Assembly (NCBI GenBank): GCA_973895155.1
Contig: OZ316899.1
Coordinates: forward strand, 13,953,934-14,017,933
Length of the DNA: 64,000 bases
Source: Marsupella aquatica
Taxonomy: Eukaryota > Plantae > Marchantiophyta
Reading direction: 5' to 3'
The position numbers were made by a program, and so were the translations under genes. The notes under the pieces are model-generated. The model saw nothing but the letters and a program-made list of their open reading frames with translations, searched no databases and was not told the origin of the DNA. Shown piece after piece: positions 429 to 24,826 of the stretch (within the stretch, counting starts at the first letter, position 1; each line of letters starts with the position of its first letter).

Positions 429-2249
429 ATGAAGACAAACATGGCTCGTGCCGCGGCTGCAACAACAGCGGGGAAGAAACGGGAAGCAGAGAGCACTGAA
501 GTGGGGTCGTCGGAACAGCATGGGAAGAAGACGAGGATGACATCAAACCAAAGTCTAGCGCAAAAGGCGGGGTGTGGTAGGAGGGTTCGGGATTCACAAA
601 GCGGACCAGGTTGACAAGTGTGAAGCCGAGGTCATTGCATCGACAACGCCCAAAAACCTGGAGTGGAATGAGTGGATTGATGCGGTACCCGACAAGCAGT
701 GGCTTTTGTTTCCTCGGGAGGAGGACGATGTGTTCAAGGCATTATGTACAGATAAGCGTGACCCCAGTTTAATGAACAATTCAGGGTTAGAAGATTTTAT
801 CAGATTACCCTGGCTACAAAACAATGCAAGCCAGCGGGAGTTGATGGAGTTCATAGGTAATTGGGATCCTGCCAAAAAAGTGACTCATGTCTATGGCCGG
901 GAATTTGTATTGAACATGCGGGTAGTGTCAGAGGTGTTCGGCTTACGGCAAGGTCAAACTAACAAAATTGAACAACGGGTGGTGGCTAAGATAGAAAAGT
1001 GGGACAACTTTGAAGGGCCACCAAAAGCGAACGGGTTCCTTCAAACTCAGTGCACCAACAAGCAGTTTTTGGAATTGTTGGATTTCCTTAGGGTTACATT
1101 GTGGTTTACCAACAGTCGAACTGAGATAGGTAAGAACCAGGTGCTCTTAGGATAGAATGTAGGTGCGGTTAGAGATTACCGTGGGTTTCTTTATAGGAAA
1201 GTGTTGGACGAGTTAAATTCTAACCGCAAGGTTATAGCGGATGGAGCTCTTTCGAGAGCTGTTTCCAAGCTATCATATCATTTGCCGATGATATGCAAGT
1301 ATGCTCGGAGGGAGATTTTGGGAATAGGTGGTATGGTAGATGAGATAGCAGCCAGCAGATCGCAGACTGCACTAGCTGAGCAAGAGGAGAATACATCTTC
1401 TCCGTTGGTAGCAACAAGCGCCAAGGATTTTAAGAAGCCACTCCTGGAGGTGCTTAGTCCAGATGACTGGGTGCCCGAGAAAGAATTGTGTCCAAGTGGT
1501 AGTTCACCAATGCAAGCTGAAGTGGATGAACCTGTTAGTCGGCGATGTACAAGGGCAAATAAACAGGGGCATGGGCTCAAAGCCAAAGCGAGAGGTGCAA
1601 GAAGAGGCGGCGTTGCTAAGGCAAGTTCCAGGTCACCGATCGATTATGATATCAAGAATTGCACCGGTGAGACGTCAAATGAGGACTTTGGGATATAGGG
1701 AATAAAGGTGCAGAACCAAAGGTGGAGTCCGGCAACGGCATTCAGCCATGTTCGAGCCGACGCTGCAAGAGCCCACTTTTCCTACTAGTGGTAAGGGGTC
1801 CAAAGAAGCGTACCAGGAGTGTTTAGGGTGCCGCTGTGAATTTGGAGGGAGAATGCCAGGGGGTCCATGGCAAGCCAAAATGAAGGTTCCAAACAAGCAC
1901 GTCGAGTTTCCGGCAAGGGTCCGGGATGAGGAGCGAGTAGTTTGTGCAATTCATACCATCCAACCCTCATCGATGGAATACCTTAGGATCGCCAAATTTG
2001 ACATTAATTTGTTTAATAAACTTCAGGAGTCAAAGACAAACACAATATTTGCCCTCAGTGGTGAGGTGGCCAACTTGGTTGCTGCTGTGCTTAAGGAAGA
2101 GCAGGAGTCAAGGCCGAGGATTGTTAAGATGCTGGCCGAGAAGAAATGGGTTGAAGATCAATTGAAGGAAGCCGAGGCCGAGAATAAATGGCTGGAAGAT
2201 CAATTGAAGGAAACTAAGGCTCAATTGAAGGAGACTGAGGCCGAGTTAG
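429..2249 (+). pseudogene. LTR-borne protein family, copy A (globular domain + coiled coil), disrupted by stops/frameshifts
   Basis: ORFs 574-1155 and 1201-1698 align with the LTR ORF at 4898-5992: SGLEDFIRLPWL/SGLEAFVRLPWL, NGFLQTQCTN/NGFFRNTCTN, DFLRVT, EIGKNQV/EIGKAQV, SKLSYHLPMICKYAR/SRLGYHMPLLCRYAR. ORF 1748-2249 is coiled coil. Confidence 0.85.
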
Positions 2250-5200
2250 TGTGGTGCGTCCCATGGCTCCCTAAACCCAAGAAACCCCCCCAGCGCAAGC
2301 CGATTCCCGCAGGTTTCGCGCTTGGCGAGGCCATTTCCGCGGCTTAGCGGCATGGGACGCTGCTAACCTCCTTCTACTACTACTATTAACATTTTACACA
2401 CATATACTGGACAGATCCTTCATCGGGTCATGAGATACGTAGCCGGCCTAATCTAGGCCTTCCCTTGTCTTCCCCTCCGTCTTGTTAGGTATGTTTGGAT
2501 TCCGCCACCGGAATGATCCCCAATAGGCTTGGTTAAGCCGCTAAGACCTCTCTCAGCTCGACACATCCAACTCTCACTCCCCTGCTTACTTTCCTTCCTC
2601 TATTGGTTGATGTGGGCACTCTTCACACAAGTTAATGCGACACACAAATAGCAAAATGACTCCTTCTGACTGAGTCATACCATGCACTTGCCATACAAAC
2701 AATACATCTCATACACAAGCTCTGCGAACTAAGCCGTGAGGCCAACTCTATTCAGCTCTTAGGCATGAGGAAACATGAATATACACAAGGGTCACTGTAT
2801 GACTAACCGAGAGCTTCTCTTACTACTTGATCCCAGCCCGGCTGGTGCAAACTAAAAACTTGCTAAAGAAGAGGCCCTGAGCTCCCCGCTGCCCAGGTAC
2901 TTATCCTGGTAGTGGATCCGCCTAATTCTTTGCAGCGTAAGCCTAATCTACCTAACTGGATCTACCTATGTACAGCGAGGCAGGAGTACAAGTGTTGCTC
3001 TTACCAGTGGAACCGCAATCCCACTAAGCTAAGTGTCAGGGCCGCCTCCTGGTCCTGATCCTAATCCTAAACTTAGAGATCTGAGCCCGCCCTGCCCACT
3101 CATGCCTCCTCCCTCCACGTCTGCCCTCCTTGAAAGGAGCGGCCCTCCACCACCGTCATGGCAGCGGTGGCTGTTCCTCAGTGGACGCCCCCAACGCTTC
3201 CACCTTAGCCACTGCCGTAGGTTCGTTCTCTGACAGATTACCTGCCCTTGACTGAGTCAACTCTCCATCGGCCTGACTGGGTCCACCCCCGGCAACGGCA
3301 TCGGCTTCAACATCAGCCTCGGCTACGGCCTCAGCCTCGGCCACGGCCTCCCTGGCTTGCTCAAGAGGTGGATCTAGGATACCGGCCTCATTACTGAGTA
3401 GTTTGGCTTGGGTCGCGCCATCCCCACCTTTGGTGGTAGCGGAATCTATTGCCGTGTTCATGCCGGAGGTTGGTACCGGTTTGAGTACGGCTTGAGGGGT
3501 CGAATAACCTCCGGACCCTGAAGGTTTCCGCTTCTTCTTCTTCACTATCTCCATAGCCGGTTCCTTCCCCTTGCTGCCAATGTCCGGCACCGGGCCGTGT
3601 GTCACGGCTGGTCCTTCGGCAATTACCACCCCGGGTAACTAGTTTGCCCCAACGGGAGATGGACCTGATGCAGCTAAGCATTTAAATACTGCGGCTTGTT
3701 TCTTCAGCCGCTCTATTTGGTTGTCGGCCCGCCGCTGTAGATTCTCCATCTTCCTCGTGATTTCCTCCAACTCCTCCTGGGTCTCATCCAGGTCCTTACA
3801 CTCCTCCAGCTCGTTTTTGGCTTCCTCCAATTCCCTGTGGGCTTCCTCCAATTCCTTTTTGGTGGTAGCCCTCTCCTCCTGGGTTGCTCTTAGCTCCTTG
3901 TCGAGCTCCGCTACGACCTCAGACTCCATGTTATTCATCTTGGCATAAGTCTGGTCGAGCTGGGCGTCCTTCTCCCGCAGGTCGGCCTTGAAGCTGGCCG
4001 TCAGGGACGCAAGCTCCTGTTGTAGCGCAACAATCCCTTGATAGGATTTCCCTAACTCGGCCTCCTTCTGCTCAAGGGCTCGGCGGATGACCTCAAGCTC
4101 TCCCTTCAGCGCCCTCTCCCTTCTCTGAGTCTCCGCCGCGACCCGGTTGTTGACTACTATATGGGCCTCCTCTGCGTCTCTCAGCTCCTTCTTCCATTTC
4201 TCCCTGTCCTTGATTGCGTCGGCCAATTCTTCCTGGGTCTGAGTCAGTTTATCCTTGATAATCTGATTATCAGCCTGCGCGGTGTCCAACTGCCCCTGCA
4301 TGATGTTCAGTTCATGTCGCTTAATCCGCAGTTCATCTTGGGCTTTCTTGGCCACCCTTAGATCTTCAATCTTGGCTTCCATCCTCCTAAGCCGCCGGAT
4401 GACCTCGTCCTTCTTGTTTCTCTCTAAAGCCACCGCTTCTTCTAACTGGTGCTTCTCCAACTGCTCCCTATGGAAAAAGGGTCCTACCTCCAACTCCTCC
4501 CCAAAGATGCCGAGCGCAAGTTCCCCACATATCTCACCATACTCCATGGCTCTATTCTTAGCGTAGGTGGAGTAAGTAGAAGTGATCGGCATCGCCCATC
4601 GCGGCCTCTGCTCCCAAGCCGTCTTGCGGATCTCTTCAATCGTGGCTAGAAGTTTGCTTCCTTTTTCGGCTAGCCGCCTGATGTCCTCCGGCCAATCTCC
4701 TCCTGGCAAATCCTTTTCCCTAGCCAGGGCTGCCTTTTCTGCTTCCCTAAGTCGCTCCTGGAATTCCTGTGCCGTCTGCTTTATGCCGTCAAAGCTCCGG
4801 AGAGCAACATCTGGTGGGGGAGACTCGGGGCTACTCTGCTGGTTGGGGTCCCCTCGAACTACCCTTGGAAGTGTGGGGATAAACCGGCCACAGGTCCTTA
4901 CTCCTGGAACGTGATGGTCCGACCCATAGTCGGAGTTATCATGGCTGCAGTCCTCCATTGCCTCCTCCAACCCTTGGACTTCCGGCTTCTCCCTCTCGTC
5001 TTCGCCGGTAGGAGCTTCAGGCAATTCTGCCTCAGTTCAGAGCTTGAGACTCCCACGTACATTCGAACACCCGGCTTGGATTCTGGCCTGATTCTCTCCT
5101 TATTTCCGGTAAAGGGGTTTTCCCTTCTAAGTCTGCTTAGGTTGACCTCTGGGGCAGTGTCCTGTATTGGTGCCGCTGTCGAAGCTGGTGCCAGTGCCGT

Positions 5201-6910
5201 CTTTTCCTTCTCCAGCATTTTCAGCAGATTTTGCATGCTTGGTTGCTGCATCGGCAAGTCTTCCTTCCTTGGCCTAAACACCTGCTCAATCGTAGGGCTA
5301 ACAGGTGGTTGAGGCTTCTCTGCTACCGGCCTCGGTGCTGGAGCTTCCTCGGGTGTCCTTACCTGCAGGGGAAGTACTGGGGCAAAGGTCTGACTTCTGG
5401 CATACCGGCACAACAGCGGCATGTGATAGCCAAGCCGCGACACGCTCCCCATGCTGATTACCTGCTGCTCCTCCTTTAAGATCTTCTTCAATTGGTTGAG
5501 GAGGTACCCGTTGTAGTCCCGGCTTGGGTCTCGCCTCTCTGCCAGATAGACCTGTGCCTTGCCGATCTCTGCCCTCGGCAAGTTACAATGCATGGTCACC
5601 CGCAAGAAGTCGATCATCTCTCCTATGTGCGGGTTGGTGCAGGTGTTCCGGAAGAAGCCATTCTTCGTTGATGGCCCGGGGAACGACCGGAACTCCTTGT
5701 CAGGCAAGGTCTTCCTGGTATCAACTTTGGTCTTATTGCCTATCGGCAAGCCAAACACTTTGGCAATCACCTTGGGAGTAAGATAGAAATCCTTCCCATA
5801 TATCCTCGTGGAATTGGTCTCGGGTTCCCATGACCCCACGAATTCTAATAAGTCTGAATCCGGCACCTCCGACTTCAGCCATGGTAATCTTACAAAGGCC
5901 TCTAAGCCGGATCCGGCCATGAAGCCTTGGTACTTCTTGGTCTGCATGGCCGTAAAGCATACATCCTCCTCCCGTGCAAAATGTAGTTGCACCTCCTCTG
6001 GTAGGGTTGCCGCCCAGCCCTTCCAGGTGTCATCCCTGGTTGGAATGGCATTGATGGGATCGTCCTCCTCTTCGGCTTCTCCCTGCCTCCTGCTCTGCTG
6101 CTCAGCTGGCTACTTTGGTGTCGCCGACCTCGTTCTTTTTGCCGGGGTGGCTTCATCGTTGACGGCTCCCTTCCTCTTCATTTCGGCTTCCGTGGATGTC
6201 TCTCCTAGCACGGTTGCCTTTGTCCACCCCTCCGTCCTACCCTTCAACTCCCAGTGTATGTTGTTGCAGCGTTTGATGGCTTCTCGGATGCCGACGACTC
6301 TATCTTCGCAAAACAAAAGATCGTCGAGCTGATTGGAAGTAGGAGTCCACAAGAACTCGGCCTTGATGAGTTCGCCTCCTAAGAAAGCCGTCTTCTGCAG
6401 CTCCCACAATCGAGCAAGCTCCTACGTTCTCGAGCTGCCCTTTCTGATTCTTCGTCCTCGTAAGTCTTGATGTACTCAGTTGCCCGTTCGAACAGGCATC
6501 CCCAGAAATGTGCCGCTTGATTGACGTTGCTCATACCCTCCTTAGGTCGATCGTCTGTATCTACTCTCTCCCCGAGTGCTTGCCTAAGTAGCTGACAGTA
6601 GTTGGCCTCCCGTAGTCGTCTGCCTAGTTCGTGCTCGCAAATGAGCCACCATTCCCTGCAAGCGCTCCTTACCCCTCTCCTCTTCCGGTTCTTCCTCCCG
6701 TTGATCCTTCCTAGCCGCCGACGCTTAGCGCGCCCTAACCCTAATCTTGTTTTCACCCCCAGCGTCCTTACCTCCGGCCTCGGCCCGGGTTCCATAGTCG
6801 CCCCTAATTGTTTATATTTTCCTTGTTTTGTCCCTATACTAAGGTGTTTCTAGGGTGCACTCCTGCTTTACCTACTTAACTGGCCGAGTGATTCCTGGCT
6901 AGGCATCACA
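2250..6910 (-). repeat. 3' LTR (4661 bp)
   Basis: Near-identical direct repeat of 13130-17775; ends TGTGGTGCG...GGCATCACA on the + strand. Confidence 0.96.
3156..6795 (-). pseudogene. LTR(U3)-encoded large protein, 3' LTR copy
   Basis: ORFs 6379-6795, 6110-6409, 4898-5992, 3639-5024 and 3156-3629 join into one frame when 1-bp deletions (~6425, ~5035) and the TAG at 6110 are corrected from the other LTR. The TAG at 3639 is shared by both LTRs. Confidence 0.88.
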
Positions 6911-9655
6911 TAGCTCCCCACTTAATTGTGAAGCATCCTCGCGAACAACTTCATCTTCGTCCATATAGTATTTCTTGAGGCGGTCATAATGGATGCGAAC
7001 TGGATACACTTCTCCCGTAATGTTGGCCAATTGTACGGAGCCATTGGAGAACTTCATGGTTATTCTAAAGGGTCCTAACCAGCGAGTGTAAAGCTTACCT
7101 GGAAACTTACTATACCTACTATCATAAAGTAATACAAGATCACCGGTGTGAATACTAACTGGTTTCAACTTTTTATCATACTGTTGCTTCATGGTTTTTT
7201 TTCTATATTCTATTCTCTCAGCTGAAATCATTCTTGCCTCCTCTAAAGCTTCTAATCTATATTCTCGCTCCTTCAGGCTCTCCTCCGCTGAGGCTCTTTC
7301 CTCAATTGTAACTTGAATTGTAGGGATCTCAAGTTGCATGGGTACCAGGGCTTCTTGTCCAAAGGTTAAGAAGAAGGGTGTATGACCGGTAGTGGTTTTA
7401 TAGGCTAAATTATAAGCAAAAACAGTAGCAAATAATTTATCATCCCAATCGAGTTTGTTCTGAGCTACTGTCTTGTTCAATATCTTTCCTATAATTTCGT
7501 TTGCTCGTTCTGTCAACCCATTTGCCTTTGGATGGTAGGGAGTAGTAGGCCTATGTCTAACTAAATACTGCTCATTTAAACGACTAATTATATCATTCAG
7601 AAAATGGGTTCCTCTATCACTAACTAATTCTAGGGGTGCTCCATACCTGGTGAAGATCTGCTCATACATGAATCTAGCCGTAGTAATTGCATCATCCTTC
7701 GTGGTCGGTCTGGCCTCTACCCATTTAGTTGCATAATCCGTAGCCAGGATTATGTACTTGTTTCGTCGAGGGTGGGTCAGTGGTTTCAGAGGTCCGATGT
7801 AATCAATACCCCACTTCTCGAATGGTGCCAGAGGTAGAATAGGGTGCAGTGGATGTCTTGTAGACGCCCTTGGTCCTCCTGCTCGCTGACAAGGATCACA
7901 TTGTTTGATGAACTGATAGACATCCTTGTGCAAGGTGGGCCACCAGTAACCGGCATTTAATATCTTTTTAGACGTGGTTACTGGGGCAAAATGTCCTCCG
8001 GCCTCCTCTCCATGCATGGCCCGTAGGACTCGTTTTACCTCTCCCTTTTCCAAACACCTTTGAATCGTGCCGTTGATTCCATGCTTGTGCAGTATGCCTT
8101 TAATGCACTGATACTGTCTGACCTTCCGCACAAAGACTGCGGCTTGTTCTCGGCTTAATCCTGGCTGTAATCTAGAAGTGCTGAGAAAATGTAAAATCTC
8201 AGGGTACCATGTATCAGCTATTTCCACAACGAATAGCTCCTCGTCGGGGAATCGATCGTCGATGCAATCCGTGGCAGGTTCACCTGTGATTCTTGAAAAG
8301 AAGTCGGCATTGGCGTGTAACTTTCCTGGCTTGATCCTCAGCTCATAGTCAAACTCCTGTAATAGCAAAATCCATCTTGCTACTCTGCCTGTAAGGTCCG
8401 GCTTATTGACTAGGTACTTCAAACTTTCATGATCGGTATGAAAGATTACCTTGTACCCTAGTAAATAATGCCTAAACTTTTTACAGGAATAAATGACTCC
8501 TAATGCTTCTCTCTCTGTGGTGGAGTAGTTCCGTTCGGCATCGGCAAGTTGGCGGCTTGCAAAGTATATGGGATGATCCCTTCCTTTCTCATCCAACTGA
8601 CTTAGTACTGAGCCGATACAGAAGCCCGAGACATCTACAAAAACATGAAAATCTTTGTTCCAGTCCGGTGCTATCATGACTGGGGCCTCTACTAACATCT
8701 GCTTCAATTCTACCACCGCTGTTACTCGTTCGGGTGTGGGTTCGAAGTCTGCTCCTGCCTTGAGCATGTTGGTTAATGGTAAAGCTAGCTTGGCAAAATC
8801 CTTGATGAACTGGCGATAGTAACCAATGCATCCTAAGAAGGATCTTACATCCTTTATGTTCTTAGGTTGCATGATATCTAGCCATACTGCTAGCTTACCT
8901 TTGTCAATCTCAATGCCCTTCCTTGATACCTTGTGACCTAGTAGCACCCCCTCGGTTACTGCAAAAAAACATTTATCTGGGTGTAACTTGAGACCTACCT
9001 CTCTGCATCTCATGAAAGTTTTCCTGAGGTATTTAGCATGTTTCGATGCCTTCCCGAATACTGCAAAGTCATCAATGAAGATTTCCATGAACTTTCTCAA
9101 GTAATCATGAAAAATGTTCACCATCAATCGTTGGAACATAGCTGGTGCGTTGCAGAGTCCAAACGGCATACGATTGAAGACATAGATCCCCCATTCCGTG
9201 ATGAAGGCCGTCTTGATTTGGTCTTCCTGCCGAATCCTGATTTGGTTATAACCAGAGTACCCATCCATGAATGAATATAGTTCATGACTGGCTACCATGT
9301 CTAGTACCATATCAGTAAAGGGTAAGGGAAAATGGTCTTTTAATGTCGCTTCATTCAGCTTCCTGTAATCCTGACAAACCCGGATCTTGGGTTTACCATC
9401 GGGTCCAGCTTTCTTGGGAACTATCACAATTGGAGACACCCAGTCTGAATGCAGGACTGGAGTGATGAATCCAGCTTCCACTAGTTTGTCGATTTCTGTT
9501 TTGACCATCAGGGAATACTTCGGGTTCATCCTTCGAATTGGTTGTCGAAATGATTTGGCTCCTAACATGAGATCAATTCGATGTTCCCCTAGTGTTGGAT
9601 CTACTCCCTTTAGATCTTGGTGACTCCATGCAAACACATCCTGAAATTCAATCAA
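6899..9655 (-). CDS. pol: Gypsy pol: RT, RNase H, integrase
   Basis: FMDGYSGYNQI and FIDDF (RT); VDVSG..IGSVL (RH); H-x6-H...CDPC, WGIDYIGP, SDRGTHF, NGLTERAN, WLGPF (INT). No chromodomain. The stop codon lies inside the 3' LTR. Confidence 0.97.
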   Translation of the reverse strand: MIEFQDVFAWSHQDLKGVDPTLGEHRIDLMLGAKSFRQPIRRMNPKYSLMVKTEIDKLVEAGFITPVLHSDWVSPIVIVPKKAGPDGKPKIRVCQDYRKLNEATLKDHFPLPFTDMVLDMVASHELYSFMDGYSGYNQIRIRQEDQIKTAFITEWGIYVFNRMPFGLCNAPAMFQRLMVNIFHDYLRKFMEIFIDDFAVFGKASKHAKYLRKTFMRCREVGLKLHPDKCFFAVTEGVLLGHKVSRKGIEIDKGKLAVWLDIMQPKNIKDVRSFLGCIGYYRQFIKDFAKLALPLTNMLKAGADFEPTPERVTAVVELKQMLVEAPVMIAPDWNKDFHVFVDVSGFCIGSVLSQLDEKGRDHPIYFASRQLADAERNYSTTEREALGVIYSCKKFRHYLLGYKVIFHTDHESLKYLVNKPDLTGRVARWILLLQEFDYELRIKPGKLHANADFFSRITGEPATDCIDDRFPDEELFVVEIADTWYPEILHFLSTSRLQPGLSREQAAVFVRKVRQYQCIKGILHKHGINGTIQRCLEKGEVKRVLRAMHGEEAGGHFAPVTTSKKILNAGYWWPTLHKDVYQFIKQCDPCQRAGGPRASTRHPLHPILPLAPFEKWGIDYIGPLKPLTHPRRNKYIILATDYATKWVEARPTTKDDAITTARFMYEQIFTRYGAPLELVSDRGTHFLNDIISRLNEQYLVRHRPTTPYHPKANGLTERANEIIGKILNKTVAQNKLDWDDKLFATVFAYNLAYKTTTGHTPFFLTFGQEALVPMQLEIPTIQVTIEERASAEESLKEREYRLEALEEARMISAERIEYRKKTMKQQYDKKLKPVSIHTGDLVLLYDSRYSKFPGKLYTRWLGPFRITMKFSNGSVQLANITGEVYPVRIHYDRLKKYYMDEDEVVREDASQLSGELCDA
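6911..6925 (-). other. Polypurine tract
   Basis: Minus strand TTAAGTGGGGAGCTA abuts the TG start of the 3' LTR. Confidence 0.75.
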
Positions 9656-9723
9656 TAAGTCACTGATCTCTTTCTCGAGCTCAGGTGCTAGGTTTCTCCC
9701 TAAGTTTCGTTCCCTTCCCTCTC

Positions 9724-11039
9724 CTAAGTCGAGCTTCCGATATTGCCGCGTTGGATCATATTAATCTGCTTCTTCAAATTCGGGTCCAGCTCGGCTTCCA
9801 GTCTCTCCAATCTCATACCTCCATAAACTGGAATCTCGGCTGTACTAGCTGAGTCGGTTTCTTCCTTGTTGTCCACAGATTGTCCCCTTGCCGTTCTACT
9901 CGGTTTTGAATTATTTGTTGGCTTCCCATCCTGACTAGGCTCTGGATTCTGTCTGTGCATCTCATCCACCTCTTCCTCCTGAGGGTCAGCCCGCTGTGCT
10001 CTCCCGGCTTCTAATAGGGCCTCAATTTGTTCTGCCCTCGTAATCGGCTTGTATGTCGATTCCCTGGTATTTAATTCCTTGCCGATGATCGATGGCGTTG
10101 TGGACCCCGTCAGCTCTGCCACAACACCTGCAGAAAATCCACTGTCCCTGCTACTGCTCCCCACTTAGCCGTTTTATCCAATTGGTCTACATCCTTTACT
10201 TCCTCCGGAATTGCAGCTAAAAAGGTGGATTCTATTGTAAAGCAGTCCTCGACCTTTTCGTCCTCTTCTTCCAAGTCACCTTCCAATGGTTCTTGCCATA
10301 ATCCGCTGGGGGGTACCTCCGGTCCAAAGACACTTTCTTCGGTTAGGTCAGTGAGGCATCCTAGCCAACGTACTTCATCGGCTGACTCCAGTCCACTGTC
10401 GTACCCATCTACTTCCCTTATGCTTTTCCTACGGTCATCCTTAGTGTCCCAGGATACCGTGATAGAGGGGGTCCCGAAAGTGAACTGCTTTTTACCCCAA
10501 TCTTCTATTACCTCGGCTAGGTACAGCCATGGCCTGCCAATTAATAGCCGAAACGACGTAGGGTTTACCGGCTTCATTACTACATAGTTAATGCTAAAGA
10601 AGATACCTCCTATCTCTGTCTTGATGCCGGTTAACACTCCCGTGGGAATGACCTGATACCCATTGGCCATGTTCAACACTCTTCCAGTCATTTCCGGTGT
10701 TAGACCCCATCCTTTTGCTGTTGAATCAATCATAATACATACCCCTGATCCTCCATCGATGGGTACCCGTAGTAATAATTCTCCTTGAATCATTAATGGT
10801 AAAGCTGGGGCTCCTTGATCTTCTTCTATCATCAGCACATCGGATTTGGTTGCTACCTTGGGTAATCTCGGCTTGCCGAGAATAGCCTTCCTTAATTGCT
10901 TCCGGAAGTACGGGCTATTTTTCAGTAGTTGACCTACTGTTGTCGAGACTCTAGATTCTAGTACATCTTTAGCCAGGTCATAGGGAACTATCGGTTTCTC
11001 CAGTGGTGTCTCTATCTTGGATTCGGCCTGTTTTTTCAC
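9724..11039 (-). pseudogene. Aspartic protease and PR-RT spacer, frameshifted
   Basis: PIDGGSGVCIM catalytic motif and LLIGRPWL in ORF 10110-11039. Frame changes near 11036, 10150 and 9740. Confidence 0.88.
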
Positions 11040-13060
11040 GCTAGTCCCACAGCCGTTGGATCTTCCGAAGCAAACAATGCTTTTGCTCGTTTCATATCCT
11101 TGGCTATGGCTTCAGTATTCTCCAGGGTTTCTAATTCTTGCAGTTGTTCCTTAACACTAGCCGTAACAGAGGGGTAGAACAACTTAGGATGATCTCGATT
11201 GAAGTCGCTATCTTGTGAAGGATTGGGTTCACTGGTGGGCTCATGGCTTACCTGTATTGCCGGAGCCCTCCCTTCTCCTTCCGTTGATGTTGACGAAGAG
11301 TCGATCTTTTCCTCCGTAACCTTCCCTTTATTTTTGGCCAGCCCATCCCACCTTTCCTTCCTTCTGGTAGATCGAGTAGAGACCCGGTAGCAATCATGAT
11401 CTAAATCCTCTTCTGAGAAGGTTGATAGGGCTTCGGCCTCATCATCAGATGGTACGAACTCTGCCTCGGCATCCGCTTGCCATCCTAGTTCGATGTGGTT
11501 GATTTGAACTCCTCCTGGGGTAGTACCTGGCGGTAAGACCTTAACTGGCAAGAGCTTATGATTTGCGGCCAGGCCTGCCAACCAAGTAGGACATTGTCCT
11601 AGCATGTGACCCTCCTGTCTGCATCCCATACATAGTTGAACTGGTTGTCCATCACCTTGTTTGCGTGCATTCGGGCATTCTCTAGCAAAATGGCCAGGTT
11701 GACCACAATTATAGCATGCCGCAAATCTTTGCACATTCGGCCTAGGAGGTACCGACGGGTTCTGAATAATCTGAGGATACATCTCTCCCGGGTTGTTCCT
11801 TAATCCTGACCACAGAGATGCAGGTCTGTTGGATAGGTCTCGTGCTCCAGTCTCACTGATGCCGAAAACACTATCAGCGGCATCTCCTAGAAAGTACTCT
11901 ACTTCTCCCTGACATGGTCTGATCTCGGCCACATGCCGAACATGATTAGTATTAAGTTTAGGACACGCATCTTTATGGTGTCCGGTTTTATAACATAAGG
12001 CATACCATACAGAGCTATCCTCCTGTACTACCTTCTTCTTCGGCTTTACCTCTGCAATTATAGCCTTAAGTTGCTCGGTAAGGGCCACGATGTTATCTGG
12101 TGGCTTAGCCTCCAGCTTGACTTTCGTCTTCCCTCTCCTTCTGGCCTTTCTTTTCCTAGTTTTTTCTTCTTCAGAACTAGAAGATGACTCACTCTTGCTA
12201 CTTCCACTATCCGAGCTTGAGTTATCACTTCTTGACTTCTTAGAATGTTTCTTCTTCTTATCTTTTTTCTTATGGGGTGATCCCTCCTCTGATGAGGAAC
12301 TCTCAGACTTAAGCTGTTTCTTCCGGCTTGTGATATCTGCATTAATGTATAATTGAATATCCTTAATTGCCTCGGCTAAAGTCTCCGGGTTCTCCTTCCG
12401 TATTGCGAAACTCATCTTCTGTGGCAAAGCATTCACCAACCATTGAAGTTGCATACCTTCAGATGCATTGGTCTTTGTACGTCTTACCAGTTTCTGAAAG
12501 CGTTGCAAGAACTTCCTGAAGGATTTGTTCTCCTTGAACCGAAGTCGTCCCAATTTCAGCACTGCTAGTTCTGAAGTTCCAATGGGTCGAAACTCCTTAA
12601 CAAATAGTGTTTTGAAGATATCCCAGATGGCTTGATCTTCCACATCCAATGCTCTGTACCAAGGCCTAGCCTCACCCTTGAACAGGCCGGGAAGAATCTG
12701 CATCTTGATGGCCGATTCTCCATTTGCTGCAGCGGTTCCCTCGAAATCATCCAACCATTCGTCCGGATCCTCATCTCCTCTCCCATGAAATGCCTTGTAA
12801 TGAATGCGCGACCGTTGGCTCAGTCTGGTCCCTGGCCTCTCGTCTGGCCGTGCCTCTGGTTCCCCCATGTCGGTTGGGTACTCGTTTCTTCCTACCGACT
12901 CTTCTTCTAGTATGTCTTCTTCGACGCCACTTCCAGCTTCGGAGCTACCAGCTCTTTCTGCTCCTCTCAGTCGCCGTGTATCATGCCACCCGGCAAGCTG
13001 CTGTAGACGAGCTCTCTCCCGTTGAATCGCTCTTTCCTCCCTTGGCGTAGATTCAGTCAT
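11036..13060 (-). CDS. gag: Gypsy gag with CCHC zinc knuckles
   Basis: Capsid motif FHGRGDEDPDEWL...FKGEARPWY; knuckles CYNCGQPGHFARECP and CMGCRQEGHMLGQC plus one degenerate knuckle. Confidence 0.93.
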   Translation of the reverse strand: MTESTPREERAIQRERARLQQLAGWHDTRRLRGAERAGSSEAGSGVEEDILEEESVGRNEYPTDMGEPEARPDERPGTRLSQRSRIHYKAFHGRGDEDPDEWLDDFEGTAAANGESAIKMQILPGLFKGEARPWYRALDVEDQAIWDIFKTLFVKEFRPIGTSELAVLKLGRLRFKENKSFRKFLQRFQKLVRRTKTNASEGMQLQWLVNALPQKMSFAIRKENPETLAEAIKDIQLYINADITSRKKQLKSESSSSEEGSPHKKKDKKKKHSKKSRSDNSSSDSGSSKSESSSSSEEEKTRKRKARRRGKTKVKLEAKPPDNIVALTEQLKAIIAEVKPKKKVVQEDSSVWYALCYKTGHHKDACPKLNTNHVRHVAEIRPCQGEVEYFLGDAADSVFGISETGARDLSNRPASLWSGLRNNPGEMYPQIIQNPSVPPRPNVQRFAACYNCGQPGHFARECPNARKQGDGQPVQLCMGCRQEGHMLGQCPTWLAGLAANHKLLPVKVLPPGTTPGGVQINHIELGWQADAEAEFVPSDDEAEALSTFSEEDLDHDCYRVSTRSTRRKERWDGLAKNKGKVTEEKIDSSSTSTEGEGRAPAIQVSHEPTSEPNPSQDSDFNRDHPKLFYPSVTASVKEQLQELETLENTEAIAKDMKRAKALFASEDPTAVGLA

Positions 13061-13106
13061 TACCTACGCTTCTTTCCTAACTTCATATCTCACGGCTTAA
13101 GAAATG

Positions 13107-13125
13107 CCCCCTCCATCTAGCGCCA
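13107..13125 (-). other. Primer-binding site TGGCGCTAGATGGAGGGGG
   Basis: TGG-initiated sequence 4 nt downstream of the 5' LTR. The cognate tRNA was not determined. Confidence 0.75.
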
Positions 13126-13129
13126 AAAA

Positions 13130-16100
13130 TGTGGTGCGTCCCATGGCTCCCTAAACCCAAGAAACCCCACCAGCACAAGCCGATTCCCGCAGGTTTCGTG
13201 CTTGGCGAGGCCGTTTCCGTGGCTTAGCGGCATGGGACGCTGCTAACCTCCTTCTACTACTACTATTAACATTTTACACACATATACTGGACAGATCCTT
13301 CATCGGGTCATGAGATACGTAGCCGGCCTAATCTAGGCCTTCCCTTGTCTTCCCCTCTGTCTTGTTAGGTATGTTTGGATTCCGCCGCCGGAATGATCCC
13401 CAATAGGCTTGGTTAAGCCGCTAAGACCTCTCTCAGCTCGACACATCCAACTCTCACTCCCCTGCTTACTTTCCTTCCTCTATTGGTTGATGTGGACACT
13501 CTTCACACAAGTTAATGCGACACACAAATAGCAAAATGACTCCTTCTTACTGAGTCATACCATGCACTTGCCATACAAACAATACATCTCATACACAAGC
13601 TCTGCGAACTAAGCCGTGAGGCCAACTCTATTCAGCTCTTAGGCATGAGGAAACATGAATATACACAAGGGTCACTGTATGACTAACCAAGAGCTTCTCT
13701 TACTACTTGATCCCAGCCCGGCTGGTGCAAACTAAAAACTTGCTAAAGAAGAGGCCCTGAGCTCCCCGCTGCCCAGGTACTTATCCTGGTAGTGGATCCG
13801 CCTAATTCTTTGCAACGTAAGCCTAATCTACCTAACTGGATCTACCTATGTACAGCGAGGCAGGAGTACAAGTGTTGCTCTTACCAGTGGAACCGCAATC
13901 CCACTAAGCTAAGTGTCAGGGCCGCCTCTTGGTCCTGATCCTAATCCTAAACTTAGAGATCTGAGCCCGCCCTGCCCACTCATGCCTCCTCCCTCCACGT
14001 CCACCCTCCTTGAAAGGAGCGGCCCTCCACCACCGTCATGGCAGCGGTGGCTGTTCCTTAGTGGACGCCCCCAACGCTTCCACCTCAGCCACTGCCGTAG
14101 GTTCGTTCTCTGACAGATTACCTGCCCTTGACTGAGTCAACTCTCCATCGGCCTGACTAGGTCCACCCCCGGCAATGGCATCGGCTTCAACATCAGCCTC
14201 GGCTATGACCTCCCTGGCTTGCTCAAGAGGTGGATCTGGGATACCGGCCTCATTACTGAGTAGTTTGGCTTGGGTCGCGCCATCCCCACCTTTGGTGGTA
14301 GCGGAATCTATTGCCGTGTTCATGCCGGAGGTTGGTACCGGTTTGAGTACGGCTTGAGGGGTTGAATAACCTCCGGACCCCGAAGGTTTCCGCTTCTTCT
14401 TCTTCACTATCTCCATAGCCGGTTCCTTCCCTTGCTGCCAACGTCCGGCACCGGGCCGTGTGTCACGGCTGGTCCTTCGGCAATTACCACCCCGGGTAAC
14501 TAGTTTGCCCCAACGGGAGATGGACCTGATGCAGCTAAGCATTTAAATACTGCGGCTTGTTTCTTCAGCCGCTCTGTTTGGTTGTCGGCCCGCCGCTGTA
14601 GATTCTCCATCTTCCTCGTGATTTCCTCCAACTCCTCCTGGGTCTCATCCAGGTCCTTACGTGCCTCCTCCAGCTCATTTTTGGCTTCCTCCAATTCCCT
14701 GTGGGCTTCCTCCAATTCCTTTTTGGTGGTAGCCCTCTCCTCCTGGGTTGCTCTTAGCTCCTTGTCAAGCTCCGCTACGACCTCAGACTCCATGTTATTC
14801 ATCTTGGCATAAGTCTGGTTGAGCTTGGCGTCCTTCTCCCGCAGGTCGGCCTTGAAGCTGGCCGTCAGGGACGCAAGCTCCTGTTGTAGCGCAACAATCC
14901 CTTGATAGGATTTCCCTAACTCGGCCTCCTTCTGCTCAAGGGCTCGGCGGATGACCTTGAGCTCTCCCTTCAGCGCCCTCTCCCTTCTCTGAGTCTCCGC
15001 CGCGACCCGGTTGTTGACTGCTATATGGGCCTCCTCTGTGTCTCTCAGCTCCTTCTTCCATTTCTCCCTGTCCTTGATTGCGTCGGCCAATTCTTCCTGG
15101 GTCTGAGTCAGTTTATCCTTGATAATCTGATTATCAGCCTGCGCGGTGTCCAACTGCCCCTGCATGATGTTCAGTTCATGCCGCTTAATCTGCAGTTCAT
15201 CTTGGGCTTTCTTGGCCGCCCTTAGATCGTCAATCTCGGCTTCCATCCTCCTAAGCCGCCGGATGACCTCGTCCTTCTTGTTTCTCTCTAAAGCCACCGC
15301 TTCTTCTAACTGGTGCTTCTCCAACTGCTCCCTATGGAAAAAGGGTCCTACATCCAACTCCTCCCCAAAGATGCCGAGCGCAAGTTCCCCACGTATCTCA
15401 CCATACTCCATGGCTCTATTCTTAGCATAGGTGGAGTAAGTAGAAGTGATCGGCATCGCCCATCGCGGCCTCTGCTCCCAAGCCGTCTTGCGGATCTCTT
15501 CAATCATGGCTAGAGGTTTGCTTCCTTTTTCGGCTAGCCGCCTGATGTCCTCCGGCCAATCTCCTCCTGGCAAATCCTTTTCCCTAGCCAGGGCTGTCTT
15601 TTCTGCTTCCCTAAGTCGCTCCTGGAATTCCTATGCCATCTGCTTTATGCCGTCAAAGCTCGGGGAGCAACATCTGGTGGGGGAGACTCGGGGCTACTCT
15701 GCTGGTTGGGGTCCCCTCGAACTACCCTTGGAAGTGTGGGGATAAACCGGCCACAGGTCCTTACTCCTGGAACGTGATGGTCCGACCCATAGCCGGAGTT
15801 ATCATGGCTGCAGTCCTCCACTGCCTCCTCCAACCCTTGGACTTCTGGCTTCTCCCTCTCGTCTTCGCCGGTAGGAACTTCAGGCAATTCTGCCTCAGAT
15901 TCAGAGCTTGAGACTCCCACGTACATTCGAACACCCGGCTTGGATCCTGGCCTGATTCTCTCCTTATTTCCGGTAAAGGGGTTTTCCCTTCTAAGTCTGC
16001 TTAGGTTGACCTCTGGGGCAGTGTCCTGTATTGGTGCCGCTATCGAAGCTGGTGCCAGTGCCGTCTTTTCCTTCTCCAGCATTTTCAGCAGATTCTGCAT

Positions 16101-17775
16101 GCTTGGTTGTTGCATCGGCAAGTCTTCCTTCCTTGGCCTAAACACCTGCTCAATCGTAGGGCTAACAGGTGGTTGAGGCTTCTCTGCTACCGGCCTCGGT
16201 GCTGGAGCTTCCTCGGGTGTCCTTACCTGCAGGGGAAGTACTGGGGCAAAGGTCTGACCTCTGGCATACCGGCACAACAGCGACATGTGATAGCCAAGCC
16301 GCGACACGCTCCCCATGCCGATTACCTGCTGCTCCTCCTTTAAGATCTTCTTCAATTGGTTGAGGAGGTACCCGTTGTAGTCCCGGCTTGGGTCTCGCCT
16401 CTCTGCCAGATAGACCTGTGCCTTGCCGATCTCTGCCCTCGGCAAGTTACAATGCATGGTCACCCGCAAGAAGTCGATCATCTCTCCTATGTGCGGGTTG
16501 GTGCAGGTGTTCCGGAAGAAGCCATTCTTCGTTGATGGCCCGGGGAACGACCGGAACTCCTTGTCAGGCAAGGTCTTCCTGGTATCAACTTTGGTCTTAT
16601 TGCCTATCGGCAAGCCAAACACTTCGGCAATCACCTTGGGAGTAAGATAGAAATCCTTCCCATATATCCTCGTGGAATTGGTCTCGGGTTCCCATGACCC
16701 CACGAATTCTAATAAGTCTGAATCCGGCACCTCCGACTTCAGCCATGGTAATCTTACAAAGGCCTCTAAGCCGGATCCGGCCATGAAGCCTTGGTACTTC
16801 TTGGTCTGCATGGCCGTAAAGCATGCATCCTCCTCCCGTGCAAAATGTAGTTGCACCTCCTCTGGTAGGGTTGCCGCCTAGCCCTTCCAGGTGTCATCCC
16901 TGGTTGGAATGGCATTGATGGGATCGTCCTCCTCTTCGGCTTCTCCCTGCCTCCTGCTCTGCTGCTCGGTTGGCTTCTTTGGTGCCGCCGACCTTGTTCT
17001 TTTTGCCGGGGTGGCTTCATCGTTGACGGCTCCCTTCCTCTTCATTTCGGCTTCCGTGGATGTCTCTCCTAGCACGGTTGCCTTTGTCCACCCCTCCGTG
17101 CTACCCTTCAACTCCTAGTGTATGTTGTTGCAGCGTTTGATGGCTTCTCGGATGCCGATGACTCTATCTTCGCAAAAGAGAAGATCGTCGAGCTGATTGG
17201 AAGTAGGAGTCCACAAGAACTCGGCCTTGATGAGTTCGCCTCCTAAGAAAGCCGTCTTCTACAGCTCCCACAATCGAGCGAGCTCCTGCCGTTCTCGAGC
17301 TGCCATTTCTGATTCTTCGTCCTTGTAAGTCTTGATGTACTCAGTTGCCCGTTCGAACAGGCATCCCCAGAAATGTGCCGCTTGATTGACGTTGCTCATA
17401 CCCTCCTTAGGTCGATCGTTGGTATCTACTCTCTCCCCGAGTGCTTGCCTAAGCAGTTGACAGTAGTTGGCCTCCCGTAGTCGTCTGCCTAGTTTGTGCT
17501 CGCAAATGAGCCACCATTTCCTGCAAGCGCTCCTTACCCCTCTCCTCTTTTGGTTCTTCCTCCCGTTGATCCTTCCTAGCCGCCGACGCTTAGCGCGCCC
17601 TAACCCTAATCTTGTTTTCACCCCCAGCGTCCTTACCTCCGGCCTCGGCCCGGGTTCCATAGTTGCCCCTAATTGTTTATATTTTCCTTGTTTTGTCCCT
17701 ATACTAAGGTGTTTCTAGGGTGCACTCCTGCTTTACCTACTTAACTGGCCGAGTGATTCCTGGCTAGGCATCACA
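13130..17775 (-). repeat. 5' LTR (4646 bp)
   Basis: Direct repeat of 2250-6910. The 15-bp length difference is accounted for by indels of 18, 3 and four of 1 bp. Confidence 0.96.
14036..17660 (-). pseudogene. LTR(U3)-encoded large protein, 5' LTR copy
   Basis: Same protein as 3156-6795 with different lesions: TAGs at 17259, ~17115 and 16878; 1-bp deletions at ~15661 and ~14430. Confidence 0.88.
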
Positions 17776-17780
17776 GTTAG

Positions 17781-17914
17781 CGTGCAGGATGGAAGAGAGA
17801 AACGTGGCAGGGAACAAAGCCGAGAGATTGAGTGGAGATGTCGAACGTCTGAAATCACAGGCGGACACTCAGTTGAAACAACTGCATAAGCTCATCGGTA
17901 GACCCAATGGGTGA
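17781..17914 (+). pseudogene. C-terminal end of copy A coiled-coil ORF
   Basis: Removing 2250-17780 rejoins the frame as ...KETEAELACRMEERNVAGNKAERLSGDVERLKSQADTQLKQLHKLIGRPNG*. Confidence 0.8.
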
Positions 17915-19209
17915 AGTATACAAAGGGGAAGGCACCTTTGGAAGAATATCACCAAGGGATTGGCCGAGTACTTGGGTCAACGTCTGTCAGTCAAGAATAA
18001 TGTGTGAAGCCGGGGTTGAGCTCAGGTCCCCCAAGGAAACTCAGGTCGAAGGGTCGATTGGGTCACCTTGGATGAAGGAGACTCGGAGCTTGATGGAACC
18101 TGTGGAGAGTGTACATCCCCTATTTTGAGATGGATGTATACTTAGGCAAAGAATGTAAAATTAAGCGAAGAAATAAAAGAAAGAATTGAAACAGGTAAAT
18201 CGGATAAGCGTTGCTTGTCGTTAGTGAAAGTGTTTAGTTTGCTTTGATGAGTAATGTCCCACAGAGTAATTATATCGCACATTAGGCGTGACTTGACGGT
18301 AACAAAGAATACACTGCAATGTAGACTTTAGTAGTATTGCTAGTTATATAGGTGAAGAACTCCCCAAGGAGGTTGTTTGTAGTTATATAGGGGAAGAAAT
18401 TTATATATTCCCCGAGGAGCTTGCGGGCAGGTAAGAGTGTCGGAAGAGCCGGTTGGGAATTTAGGGTTTAGAAGACCGCGCGAATTGTGCGAGTGGAGTT
18501 TGGGGTCTTTGGGTGGGATCACCATCTACCTCGGCCACTGGAATGGAATTGTGACATTGGGTAGGAGTAGCATGCTTAGCATGGTCTATTGGTGAAACAG
18601 GGGGGAAGATGAATGTCGGGCAAGTACAGAGAGATTCCTTGGAGGTTAACCCAAATCGTGTATCCACTTGACATCCTCGTTCATTGTGTGCGTACTGTGT
18701 TGTGTGTTATCTATGATTGTAACTTGAGGATTCCACCTTGTGTATGTGAGTTTAATAAATGTGTAGATGAGATTACACACTTGGTCAGTCGCTAAACCAA
18801 ACGAGACACAACCAATGGATAACCTCGGTGTACCCTCCAGACAAGGGATGCTAAGCTGAGTGGTCGAAAGTTAGTGGATCCTTTCCTAGTCTCTAATGAA
18901 TGTCCAAACTTCCGTATTGGGGGAAGTCAAGTGAAATCCTAACCATCTCCACTCTCAGTCCGGTTTGCACAATGAGTGATATAAAATATCTAAGATTAAT
19001 CATATCCACACACCAGCTACCGTAGCTCTAAACTCCGTTGTGTTTTCCTTGTCGACGCAAATTTGTCAATTGCATCACGGATGAAGTGAAGTTGTAACAA
19101 ATGTCAACAATTTTCAGTTTACAAGTTCCTGTTTTCTCTCAATTACGTTGACGACATTGTAAACTGTTCCATTGTAATTGAATTGATCATCATCTTTCAG
19201 CAATATTGT

Positions 19210-19715
19210 GATTCTGTTGAATTCTTATGAATGCTTTATGTAGGACCTCCTTATATCATGCTTTGTTTCATGTGGATGTCATTCATGCTCTGTTTATTTC
19301 TTGTATTTAATATGTTATATATTTCTAAAGTGATGATGAACATGAGGGTTTCTATGTATTGCAATGTCGAGTGCTCTTGAATTGACTATCTCTCCTTATG
19401 AACTCTTACACAATTGCTATAATCCATTACTGGATCAGTCATGGTTACAACTTCCCTAAATTCTTACCCTGTGACTAATTAAAGTCACATTGGAGTCACG
19501 TATCAACAAGGCTGGACTCCATAATGGAGTCACAGATCACTCACAAATGGGTATCATTGAAGCAAGTCGCAATGTCCAGTATCAAAATTGTGACTTTTGT
19601 TTTTTGGTCTCAACTTTTGCAACACCAAGGGTCACAGCCCGGCTCAAGTCGCATTGAGTTACAATGAAGTCACTTGAGCCAAAACAAGTCACATATTGTG
19701 GTCTCAGATGAGCTC
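19210..19715 (+). mobile_element. Relic CACTA terminus related to the end at 40232-40850, inverted
   Basis: Reverse-complement similarity, e.g. GGTCTCAACTTTTGCAAC vs GTTGCAAAAGTTGAGACC, with GTCAC subterminal motifs. The terminal TAGTG is missing. Confidence 0.75.
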
Positions 19716-22494: not shown

Positions 22495-23064
22495 TTGCAG
22501 TTGTACGAGTGTTGGTATTCCTTTGGACTATCTACGCTTTGCGCGGTTCTCGTGGACAATATCCACACTCCGCCAGCCAAGATGAACGAGCGTTTACTGA
22601 ATGACAATCACGTCAATTGCCTCATGGAACTCATGATTACCAACGCTGGTCAGGAGCCACTACCTACAGATCTGGTTGCCTACAGCATCATCGACAGGGA
22701 TTACAAACTCATCGACCTATCTGTTTCCGATTCTGATTCCGACAAGTTGTCCGAATTAAAATATTTTGCAATCAGTGGACAACACTCGGCAATGGCTGCA
22801 AAGAGGATAATTAGGAGTGCGCAAACCCAATCGGCGTTGATGCAAACCGCCAAGTTACTGAAATATTGATGGGCTTGAATCCTGAAGGGTTCGACCCTTG
22901 CCCAAGGTCTGGTGGAGATTTCCCATGCAAACAACATGCAAGCCAAAGCACACAGGTTTTCATCTCCATTCATCGATCAGGTGGAGCACGCCCGGTTGCA
23001 GTACATCGAAATGGGTCGTCCAGCTCGTCCACTTCCTTTTGGGCGGAAGTCTACCGAATTCCAG
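22495..23064 (+). pseudogene. ParB/Srx-like domain exon of a ParB-MTase-Ulp1 gene
   Basis: ERLLNDNHVNCLMELM...P...KYFAISGQHSAMAAKR fits the ParB N-terminal pattern (R-x-L...G-x-H-[RS]). Two in-frame TGA stops near 22867 and 22876 are plausibly CGA>TGA. A GT-AG intron at 23065-23219 joins in frame to the next exon. Confidence 0.6.
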
Positions 23065-24800: not shown

Positions 24801-24826
24801 GAACGCCACTTGCCTCAGTCGTTTGA

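Follow-up and report, generated by a model that had tools for sequence, protein, structure and literature searches.

A Ty3/gypsy retrotransposon of the liverwort Marsupella aquatica carries a conserved accessory gene in its LTRs. We consider it somewhat probable that the product of this gene, through a VANC21/PMD-like domain, is a sequence-specific DNA-binding anti-silencing factor, which would recognize the hexamer WWGCCG of its own family. This reading builds on the observed LTR anatomy, the occurrence of the gene in each LTR, purifying selection, and a motif excess, together with a predicted fold. The DNA examined was a window of 64,000 nucleotides (GCA_973895155.1, OZ316899.1), the term denoting the whole stretch analyzed, and the anatomy was read from one full-length element.

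Anatomy of the element and its LTRs

Repeat alignment revealed a direct repeat at positions 2250 to 6910 and 13130 to 17775 (4666 columns, 97.6% identity), which corresponds to the 4.65-kb LTRs of a Ty3/gypsy element on the minus strand. Read on that strand, the 5' LTR (13130 to 17775, 4646 bp) and the 3' LTR (2250 to 6910, 4661 bp) are both of the TG..CA type, start with TGTGATGC, and end with GCACCACA; the termini are near-inverted, agreeing at 7 of 8 bases. The two copies differ by 75 transitions, 11 transversions, and 6 gaps (K2P, 0.0188). The element is flanked by a 5-bp TSD (2245 to 2249, GTTAG on the plus strand, and 17776 to 17780). After the 5' LTR lies a PBS-like sequence, TGGCGCTAGA (13108 to 13125, minus strand), which we take to be of the tRNA-Arg type. 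A PPT-like purine run (6911 to 6923, minus strand) is located just before the 3' LTR, within the 3' coding end of the integrase, and the final codons of pol and its stop (6899 to 6901) fall within the first 12 nucleotides of the 3' LTR. The description of the element in the first-pass annotation, a gypsy element with 4.65-kb LTRs that are mostly coding, is borne out by the LTR ends, TSD, PBS, and PPT and by the ORF in both LTRs.

The only TATAAA on the LTR sense strand is found at LTR positions 95 to 100 (6811 to 6816 in the 3' LTR, 17676 to 17681 in the 5' LTR). Its location is compatible either with a U3 promoter of the ORF's own or with an ORF in R/U5. The noncoding 3' part of the LTR (2250 to 3155, minus strand, about 900 bp) is TGTA-rich and presumably comprises the 3'-end processing region and U5. 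Contigs from other genomes had less depth immediately past the PBS, in the internal region, than across the LTR; this may hint at many solo LTRs but was given no weight, as depth is no copy number.

Gag-pol and lineage placement

Pfam analysis of the minus strand located gag (Retrotrans_gag, zinc knuckles) at 11036 to 13063 and RT, RNase H, and integrase at 6899 to 9760. A protease-like frame (10110 to 11111, minus strand) has no Pfam match and was assigned by an IDGGSG motif read from the sequence. In this copy, pol is spread over three frames between gag and RT. The domain order, gag followed by PR-RT-RH-IN, is that of Ty3/gypsy elements, and the best PDB sequence match of pol was Ty3 Gag-Pol (E 1.5e-94).

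The Pfam scan of pol revealed no chromodomain, and assignment to the chromoviruses was rejected for want of such a match, with pol ending 12 nucleotides into the LTR. No additional RNase H was detected in pol or in the other scanned frames, a 146-aa frame at 9724 to 10164 lying outside the scan, and the 99 aa between the end of RNase H and the HHCC zinc finger of the integrase leave no room for one. The Tat lineages with an additional RNase H (Ogre, Retand, TatI-III) were rejected because pol has a single RNase H region only. The acidic motifs of the native RNase H are intact at pol residues 373, 415, 441, and 484. The lack of an additional RNase H together with an intact native catalytic set is the domain pattern of Tat Z1/Z2; judged from domain content, the element may be Tat Z1/Z2-like, and Athila or another nonchromovirus clade is also possible.

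The LTR gene and its product

Each LTR contains one broken copy of a sense ORF of about 1050 codons, intronless as read. The ATG lies at LTR position 116, about 105 nucleotides downstream of the pol stop, and the frame runs for 1052 codons to a stop common to both LTRs (3639 to 3641 and 14500 to 14502). The copy in the 3' LTR (3639 to 6795, minus strand) has two frameshifts and two stops: a frameshift plus stop at LTR positions ~485 to 487, a stop at 799, and a frameshift at ~1875. The copy in the 5' LTR (14500 to 17660, minus strand) is interrupted by stops at 515, 659, 896, and 2143 and frameshifts at ~2110 and ~3344, of which the four stops and one frameshift precede the common stop. Apart from that stop, no break coincides between the copies. 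Beyond it, the 3' LTR has a tail of 160 codons (3156 to 3638, minus strand) with KKKKRK at 3525 to 3542. These values agree closely with the earlier estimates of an ATG 116 bp into the LTR, some 100 nucleotides past the pol stop, and of nonoverlapping lesions with a consensus of ~1050 codons, or ~1210 past a shared TAG.

The protein comprises a central globular domain (5360 to 6034, minus strand, unbroken in the 3' LTR), a Pro-rich linker, and a long coiled-coil-like stretch of about 260 residues (3690 to 4470, minus strand) that is rich in E, K, R, Q, L, and A and has neither proline nor a transmembrane segment. No transmembrane segment was found anywhere in the LTR-gene protein (maximum Kyte-Doolittle 19-residue mean, 0.91), which sets it apart from env-like products. 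It contains basic NLS-like stretches, which also occur at the C termini of the homologues P0032 and P0034. A second in-frame ATG at LTR position 377 (6534 in the 3' LTR), nine codons before an FW motif, resembles the annotated start of P0034. Initiation there may yield a 965-codon protein lacking the basic N terminus; the 87 codons ahead of ATG377 would be open by chance in 1.9% of shuffles only. Thus, of the protein layout proposed earlier, the globular domain, the linker, and the coiled coil stand, KKKKRK lies past the common stop, and the basic N terminus would be lost if ATG377 is used.

Conservation and selection

Purifying selection acts on the LTR gene within the family. Among 38 listed family variants, a best-supported and partly linked subset, 18 are synonymous versus 10.4 expected (p 0.005), and none creates a stop. 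The coding changes between the two LTRs (16 synonymous, 39 nonsynonymous, 6 stops) look neutral, and the breaks are the result of decay after insertion. In contigs of other genomes, almost all depth has a sense codon at three of the stops confined to the 5' LTR, and the four stops checked were mostly absent from related genomes. The ORF, which had been claimed to be open at insertion, is accordingly open in the family.

Homology searches yielded 19 proteins at E <= 0.001. Those with names come from a liverwort (Calypogeia) and are similarly laid out, and the profile search retrieved four proteins from 7856 candidates, all from Calypogeia. Word-indexed protein searches with a single window protein as the query gave none among 627 and 5573 candidates, and metagenome contig scans gave no locus, as none of 110 and none of 74 pattern matches could be confirmed. 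A profile built from five homologue N termini ranked LTR-gene residues 94 to 193 first among the six frames of the window, but at E 1 to 2.4, so that homology of the N-terminal domain is no more than suggested. Two further decayed homologues of the gene are present in the window. The element was inserted into an older decayed homologous gene (441 to 2249, plus strand; domain identity, 40%), the coiled coil of which resumes in frame at 17781 to 17916.

Predicted fold of the central domain

The AlphaFold2 model of the central domain (pLDDT, 87.4; pTM, 0.85) predicts a VANC21/PMD fold. A Foldseek search against the PDB returned VANC21-DNA (9lnj) as the top match (probability 0.72, TMq 0.50, E 0.26), and the next match had a probability of 0.01. 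VIA-align superposed 209 to 212 residues on VANC21 with an rmsd of 4.4 to 4.5 and a Z score of 8.7, which is modest given the mainly helical domain, at an identity of 7 to 11%; of the 48,161 chains compared, no other reached Z >= 2. Two named families were retrieved from the ESM Atlas, DUF1985 (0.89) and PMD (0.88), the latter through a cluster with 14% PMD members; with scores below 0.9, both are leads only. At the sequence level, Pfam DUF1985, DUF287, and PMD (PF10536) had no match at E <= 10 in any of the 25 sequences of the alignment, nor in the window pieces, and a sequence-profile search of the PDB found nothing, VANC21 included. Nothing in the viral structure library matched at E <= 0.001 (best row, E 0.014, rmsd 19.8).

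DUF1985 is present in VANC proteins (PMC5735166), and PMD has been reported to resemble the VANC DUF1985 (10.1101/2024.09.27.615353; PMC13547354). The host PMD proteins MAIN and MAIL1 were first described in silencing (PMC5418596). Because of this link to silencing, a VANC-like fold alone leaves the direction of the effect unfixed.

Excess of the hexamer WWGCCG

Across one LTR plus the internal region (2250 to 13129), WWGCCG occurs at 75 dispersed sites, with both strands counted. Under synonymous-codon shuffles, 68 sites were observed versus 26.3 ± 4.3 expected (z 9.7). WWGCCG was chosen after inspection of the data; among the 256 WW+4-mers, the second-ranking word reaches z 3.7. The excess is found in gag/pol alone (29 versus 11.3), and in the LTR gene alone (33 versus 13.1); it is seen on either strand and in every frame, and CG is depleted overall in the element (740 versus 874). 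No excess was seen in five of six control sets, and most neighboring sequences lack the dispersion; the sixth control, the older gene at 441 to 2249, showed a weak excess (8 versus 4.0, p 0.026). WWGCCG is treated here as a candidate target of the LTR-gene protein, which would likely recognize it.

Motif CGs changed between the LTRs in 6 of 45 cases versus 32 of 189, so that protection from decay is not clear, and 3 of the 38 family variants fall in WWGCCG sites versus about 2 expected. GCCGCC and GCCGAC are AP2/ERF-type sites; the former is read at 5 and the latter at 2 of the 75 sites. A k-mer search of the noncoding LTR parts revealed no significant word (the best, TTAGG/CCTAA, was equaled in 5 of 100 shuffles), and the element's tandem repeats, all of them short, include no WWGCCG arrays.

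Proposed role and alternative explanations

An anti-silencing role, called speculative in the first-pass annotation, now gains support from the structural match to VANC21 and from the WWGCCG excess. The LTR promoter would drive synthesis of the protein, which would enter the nucleus, oligomerize via its coiled coil, bind WWGCCG, and relax DNA-methylation or Polycomb silencing on copies of the family, also in trans. The gene may have come to lie inside the LTR when plus-strand priming came to start from a purine tract ahead of what had been an extra ORF between pol and the LTR; the end of pol inside the LTR would follow from such a shift. Each insertion would thus carry the gene twice, and a solo LTR would retain gene, promoter, and target motifs.

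The fold and selection evidence would also fit a PMD-like chromatin- or DNA-binding protein with another job, such as integration steering, import of the preintegration complex, or activation of the LTR promoter, the last being the activity of foamy-virus Tas. The hexamer would then be a host transcription factor site or a by-product, and the motif CGs of this copy, which lack protection, are in keeping with that. However, WWGCCG occurs throughout gag and pol rather than clustered at the promoter, AP2/ERF-type sites are few among its occurrences, and the one structure matched belongs to a protein with demonstrated anti-silencing activity. Although nuclear-import or regulatory roles have been proposed for extra ORFs in reviews (PMC7264820), we regard this explanation as possible but on the whole unlikely. 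Less probable still is a cytoplasmic or structural accessory protein (particle scaffold, movement, or env-like) that relies on the coiled coil, with the VANC21 match reflecting a chance helical arrangement. The length of the coiled-coil-like stretch, the fold match with its weak E value and low identity, and a sense orientation behind pol, like that of env-like ORFs (PMC7264820), speak for it, but the protein has no hydrophobic segment, it shares basic NLS-like stretches with P0032 and P0034, and the fold and language-model searches agree on the DUF1985/PMD group.

The gene might also owe its position to a local or sublineage rearrangement of a short-LTR element in which the extra ORF is normally located after pol, ahead of an LTR of ~0.9 kb, an alternative raised earlier that we consider very improbable. 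The noncoding part of the LTR has about this length, both decayed homologues end in a noncoding tail of 640 to 890 bp closing in TGACA, one contig of run X2 links 13969 to 13130, 840 bp back, and the long-LTR anatomy is known here from one full-length element. Nevertheless, the TSD, PBS, PPT, and near-inverted termini are found at the ends of the long repeat, the junctions at 13130 and 17775 to 17777 recur in other genomes' contigs (runs X1, X2, and X5), and each of the 26 depth bins that lie entirely within the LTR was covered in four of four runs from other genomes, which identifies the long repeat as the integrated unit.

The function of plant gypsy extra ORFs is described as unknown (PMC7264820). 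For the PMD/VANC type, origins from a transposon or from the host are both presented in PMC5418596, and host capture is favored by PMC13547354. If the anti-silencing reading is true, retrotransposons own a sequence-specific anti-silencing system like that of VANDAL elements, and a gene in the LTR would defeat solo-LTR recombination, the usual host route for deleting retrotransposon genes. Tentatively, and short of regarding it as probable, we propose that a bryophyte gypsy LTR can be a self-contained counterdefense cassette of promoter, VANC-like anti-silencing gene, and own target motifs; that solo LTRs supply the factor in trans after loss of gag-pol; and that the VANC/PMD fold is an old retrotransposon anti-silencing device predating dicot VANC and angiosperm MAIN/MAIL. 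The element supplies a domain unbroken in the window and a candidate target hexamer, so that binding and methylation are directly testable.

Comparison with known systems

MMTV sag and the HIV nef overlap are LTR-encoded genes of retroviruses. They share with the present element coding sequence in the LTR and an upstream gene that overlaps the LTR start, whereas the ORF described here is far larger (about 70 to 80% of the LTR) and encodes an unrelated protein. The literature search found no plant case of an extra ORF inside the LTR. Tat Z1/Z2 elements of liverworts are similar in having no additional RNase H, intact native RNase H acidic residues, and no chromodomain (PMC10508981; PMC13468544), and the named homologues of the extra protein are likewise from liverworts; in the accessible text of these two descriptions, an LTR-borne gene does not appear.

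Extra PMD-type ORFs are known from angiosperm gypsy elements, and LTR lengths in the Ogre/Retand/Athila group reach about 5 kb (PMC6317226; PMC5418596; PMC7264820). This group resembles the present element in its gypsy accessory protein, PMD-like structural group, and nonchromovirus-like pol. According to the same sources, its ORFs are internal, located ahead of gag or else after pol and before the 3' LTR, with PMD-A in angiosperms, whereas the ORF here fills the LTR and is unmatched by Pfam PMD.

VANC proteins are encoded by VANDAL (Mutator-like) DNA transposons and are described as dicot specific (PMC13547354), whereas the carrier here is the LTR of a liverwort gypsy element and the gene, which has no sequence-level DUF1985 or DUF287 match, is intronless as read. 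The VANC21 motifs lie in noncoding tandem repeats (PMC5735166), in contrast to the dispersed WWGCCG sites, which are largely in coding DNA. Both proteins are encoded by a transposable element and share the predicted central-domain fold, a variable linker (VANC21, PDB 9lnj and 9lnk; PMC5735166; PMC13547354), and a coiled coil, which is likewise predicted for VANC21 (PMC13547354). A short motif has accumulated in the VANC-encoding elements, and the WWGCCG excess in the present element would be its candidate counterpart.

Long repeats form the ends of the element

Analysis of the minus-strand Ty3/gypsy element at 2250-17775 revealed two direct repeats (13130-17775 and 2250-6910) that are 97.6% identical. 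Both start with TGTGATGC and finish with GCACCACA, and a 5-bp target duplication flanks the pair. In silico excision of the element restored in frame the coiled coil of the older host gene that it interrupts, a decayed homologue of the LTR gene (441-2249 plus 17781-17916, plus strand, 40% identity). The long repeat is an integrated end because element removal rejoins this coiled coil. The termini, the duplication, and the rejoining bear out the first-pass annotation, which had taken the 4.65-kb repeats for true LTRs. The 5' LTR is followed by a PBS-like TGGCGCTAGA, presumably of the tRNA-Arg type. The internal region contains gag, a protease-like frame, and RT-RH-IN, with neither a chromodomain nor an additional RNase H. 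The purine run upstream of the 3' LTR sits within the integrase coding sequence, and the pol stop therefore falls 12 nt inside the LTR.

Junctions in runs from other genomes were found at 13130 (three listed in X2, one loose end in X5) and at 17775-17777 (X1, X2, and X5). One X2 contig jumps from 13969 back to 13130, a step that may stem from nesting of one element in another or from a variant with short LTRs. The recurring end junctions in X1, X2, and X5 speak for long LTRs beyond this copy, with this contig as a qualification. A further LTR of the family, 94% identical, contributes the 152 bp of its 3' end at 63849-64000 (minus strand); unrelated DNA with no PBS follows. This piece belongs to a 3' LTR or to a solo LTR that runs off the window.

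The LTR gene is open in the family

From the ATG at LTR position 116, one common frame runs through each LTR, and both copies are broken. The 3' LTR copy carries two frameshifts and two stops, and the 5' LTR copy carries four stops and one frameshift upstream of a shared stop; as had been proposed, no lesion occupies a common position. Inter-LTR differences inside the ORF (16 synonymous, 39 nonsynonymous, and 6 stops) and the share of transitions (75/86 inter-LTR substitutions) reflect the neutral, transition-rich decay expected after insertion.

Contigs from 4 of 10 runs were mapped on the 5' LTR (14,389, 26,223, 74, and 662 contigs). The stops private to the 5' LTR at 17261, 17116, and 16879, three of the four and those among the positions listed, were a sense codon in nearly all depth from other genomes, which supports an ORF that is open in the family. 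The shared stop was a sense codon in 100% of the depth in X1 and X2, 64% in X3, and 36% in X6. Judged from these contigs, it seems to be retained in a diverged subfamily; therefore, two protein lengths may both exist, a shorter form and a form of ~1210 codons with the KKKKRK tail. Of 53 listed ORF variants, 14 that occur in the 5' LTR alone were excluded, as was the position of the shared stop, leaving 38. Among these listed variants, none created a stop and 18 were synonymous versus 10.4 expected, with a p value (0.005) that is indicative only because the variants are a best-supported, partly linked subset. This excess agrees with selection on the family copies.

The sole TATAAA on the LTR sense strand, at LTR 95, suggests a transcript start near LTR 125; the alternative in-frame ATG at 377 would therefore be favored. 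Telobox-like TTAGGG words at 6733-6807 and 2269 (near both LTR ends) and at 181-220 (upstream of the older host gene) did not reach significance when the noncoding parts of the LTR were shuffled.

The central domain is predicted to resemble VANC21

The central domain (5360-6034) gave no Pfam match. Its AlphaFold2 model (25-sequence alignment) reached a pLDDT of 87.4. The best Foldseek match was DNA-bound VANC21 (probability 0.72, TMq 0.50, E 0.26), followed by a second match at probability 0.01. In VIA-align, VANC21 was the sole chain with Z>=2 among 48,161 (Z 8.7, 209-212/225 residues, rmsd 4.4-4.5). ESM Atlas families were DUF1985 (0.89) and PMD (0.88), both under the Atlas 0.9 mark. DUF1985 is present in VANC proteins, which bind short motifs accumulated in their own transposons (PMC5735166), and PMD domains are similar to this DUF1985 (10.1101/2024.09.27.615353; PMC13547354). 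Because of the structural match, the Atlas families, and this similarity, the modeled domain is best called VANC/PMD-like by fold and a member of neither Pfam family.

Four of the 10 homologues looked up had a named organism, in each case the liverwort Calypogeia fissa; the unindexed protein search with a 410-aa piece had found 19 proteins at E<=0.001. All four matches of a profile search were also from C. fissa. The plant that carries the element is therefore probably a bryophyte. Homologous proteins P0026 and P0034 share the LTR-gene layout (N-terminal helical region, central domain, Pro-rich linker, helical region, and coiled coil), and P0032 and P0034 have a basic patch at the C terminus. 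The window contains two further decayed family members, the older host gene and a 5'-truncated third homologue (~38900-40245 within 37866-40245, minus strand, 24% identity). The latter comprises the C half of the domain, the Pro linker, the coiled coil, and a noncoding tail with a GTGACA end; its 5' side is cut by a repeat also found at 19214-19707. The noncoding tail of both closes with TGACA, like an LTR end. The region of the older host gene (1-2249/17781-18556, plus strand) has purines at 3-12, then TGT at 13, and closes with TGTGACA at ~18556; these may be the limits of an LTR of ~3 kb that belongs to an older family.

Elsewhere in the window, ~700-bp units (74-86% identical) form a tandem array at 47990-51723, and ORFs at 44962-46770 and 58220-59578 (minus strand) are presumably CACTA/En-Spm transposase-like pieces. 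Long ORFs at 22450-25663 (plus strand) probably belong to a DNA transposon; the last has what we take to be an Ulp1-like protease motif (HFFDTWFY...H..HW). Pieces at 35455-36099 and 60852-62930 (minus strand), which we regard as an SNF2-helicase-like fragment, BRCT-like repeats, and a PHD-like Cys-rich ORF, are possibly transposon-carried genes.

WWGCCG is in excess in the element

AAGCCG occurred 29 times in the element, whereas an order-2 Markov model predicted 7.9 (corrected p 1e-5); the excess was not significant under order 3. WWGCCG, defined from the flanks of GCCG cores, has 75 sites in 10.9 kb. Synonymous-codon shuffles of the coding parts gave 68 sites versus 26.3±4.3 expected (z 9.7; runner-up among 256 WW+4-mers, z 3.7), with CG depleted and SSGCCG under expectation. 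The excess affected gag/pol (29 versus 11.3) and the LTR gene (33 versus 13.1), both strands, and all frames. It was weak in the older host gene (8 versus 4.0, p 0.026) and absent from the third homologue (5 versus 3.6) and from copia, CACTA-like, and other neighboring ORF sets (4/6.8, 2/2.9, 6/5.6, and 5/5.8 observed/expected). The copia-type control element (26383-32191, minus strand) has identical 143-bp LTRs and is a very recent insertion. Outside the element, ~26-bp units at 42167-42350, each with CGGCTT (minus-strand WWGCCG), form a tandem array with no obvious ORF.

On balance, we lean toward an LTR-gene protein that is nuclear, oligomeric, and DNA binding, recognizes the family motif, and counters silencing. 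Long-term binding at CG-containing sites could have spared them deamination and so built up the excess. Several points weigh against a function of the motif: WWGCCG was selected post hoc, CG decay in this dead copy is about equal at motif and other CGs (6/45 versus 32/189), listed family variants do not avoid the sites (3/38), and it is not arrayed, unlike the VANC21 motif, which lies in tandem arrays.

Comparison with known elements

An anti-silencing role has been proposed for TE-encoded PMDs (10.1101/2024.09.27.615353; PMC13547354). PMD in 57% of Ogre elements, other extra ORFs, and LTRs of ~5 kb are known (PMC6317226; PMC6431247). The literature searched, without most subscription papers, yielded no plant LTR-internal gene (REXdb position lists may include such cases), no paper combining PMD, gypsy, and bryophyte, and, in the text available, no VANC-like system in a retrotransposon. 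The positions of the pol stop and purine tract suggest that plus-strand priming moved to another site and that a former pol-to-LTR extra ORF was thereby drawn into the LTR. In domain content, the element fits the liverwort Tat Z1/Z2 elements, which lack the additional RNase H (PMC10508981; PMC13468544). In contrast to plant extra ORFs, placed in the internal region by a review (PMC7264820), the gene described here lies inside the LTR.
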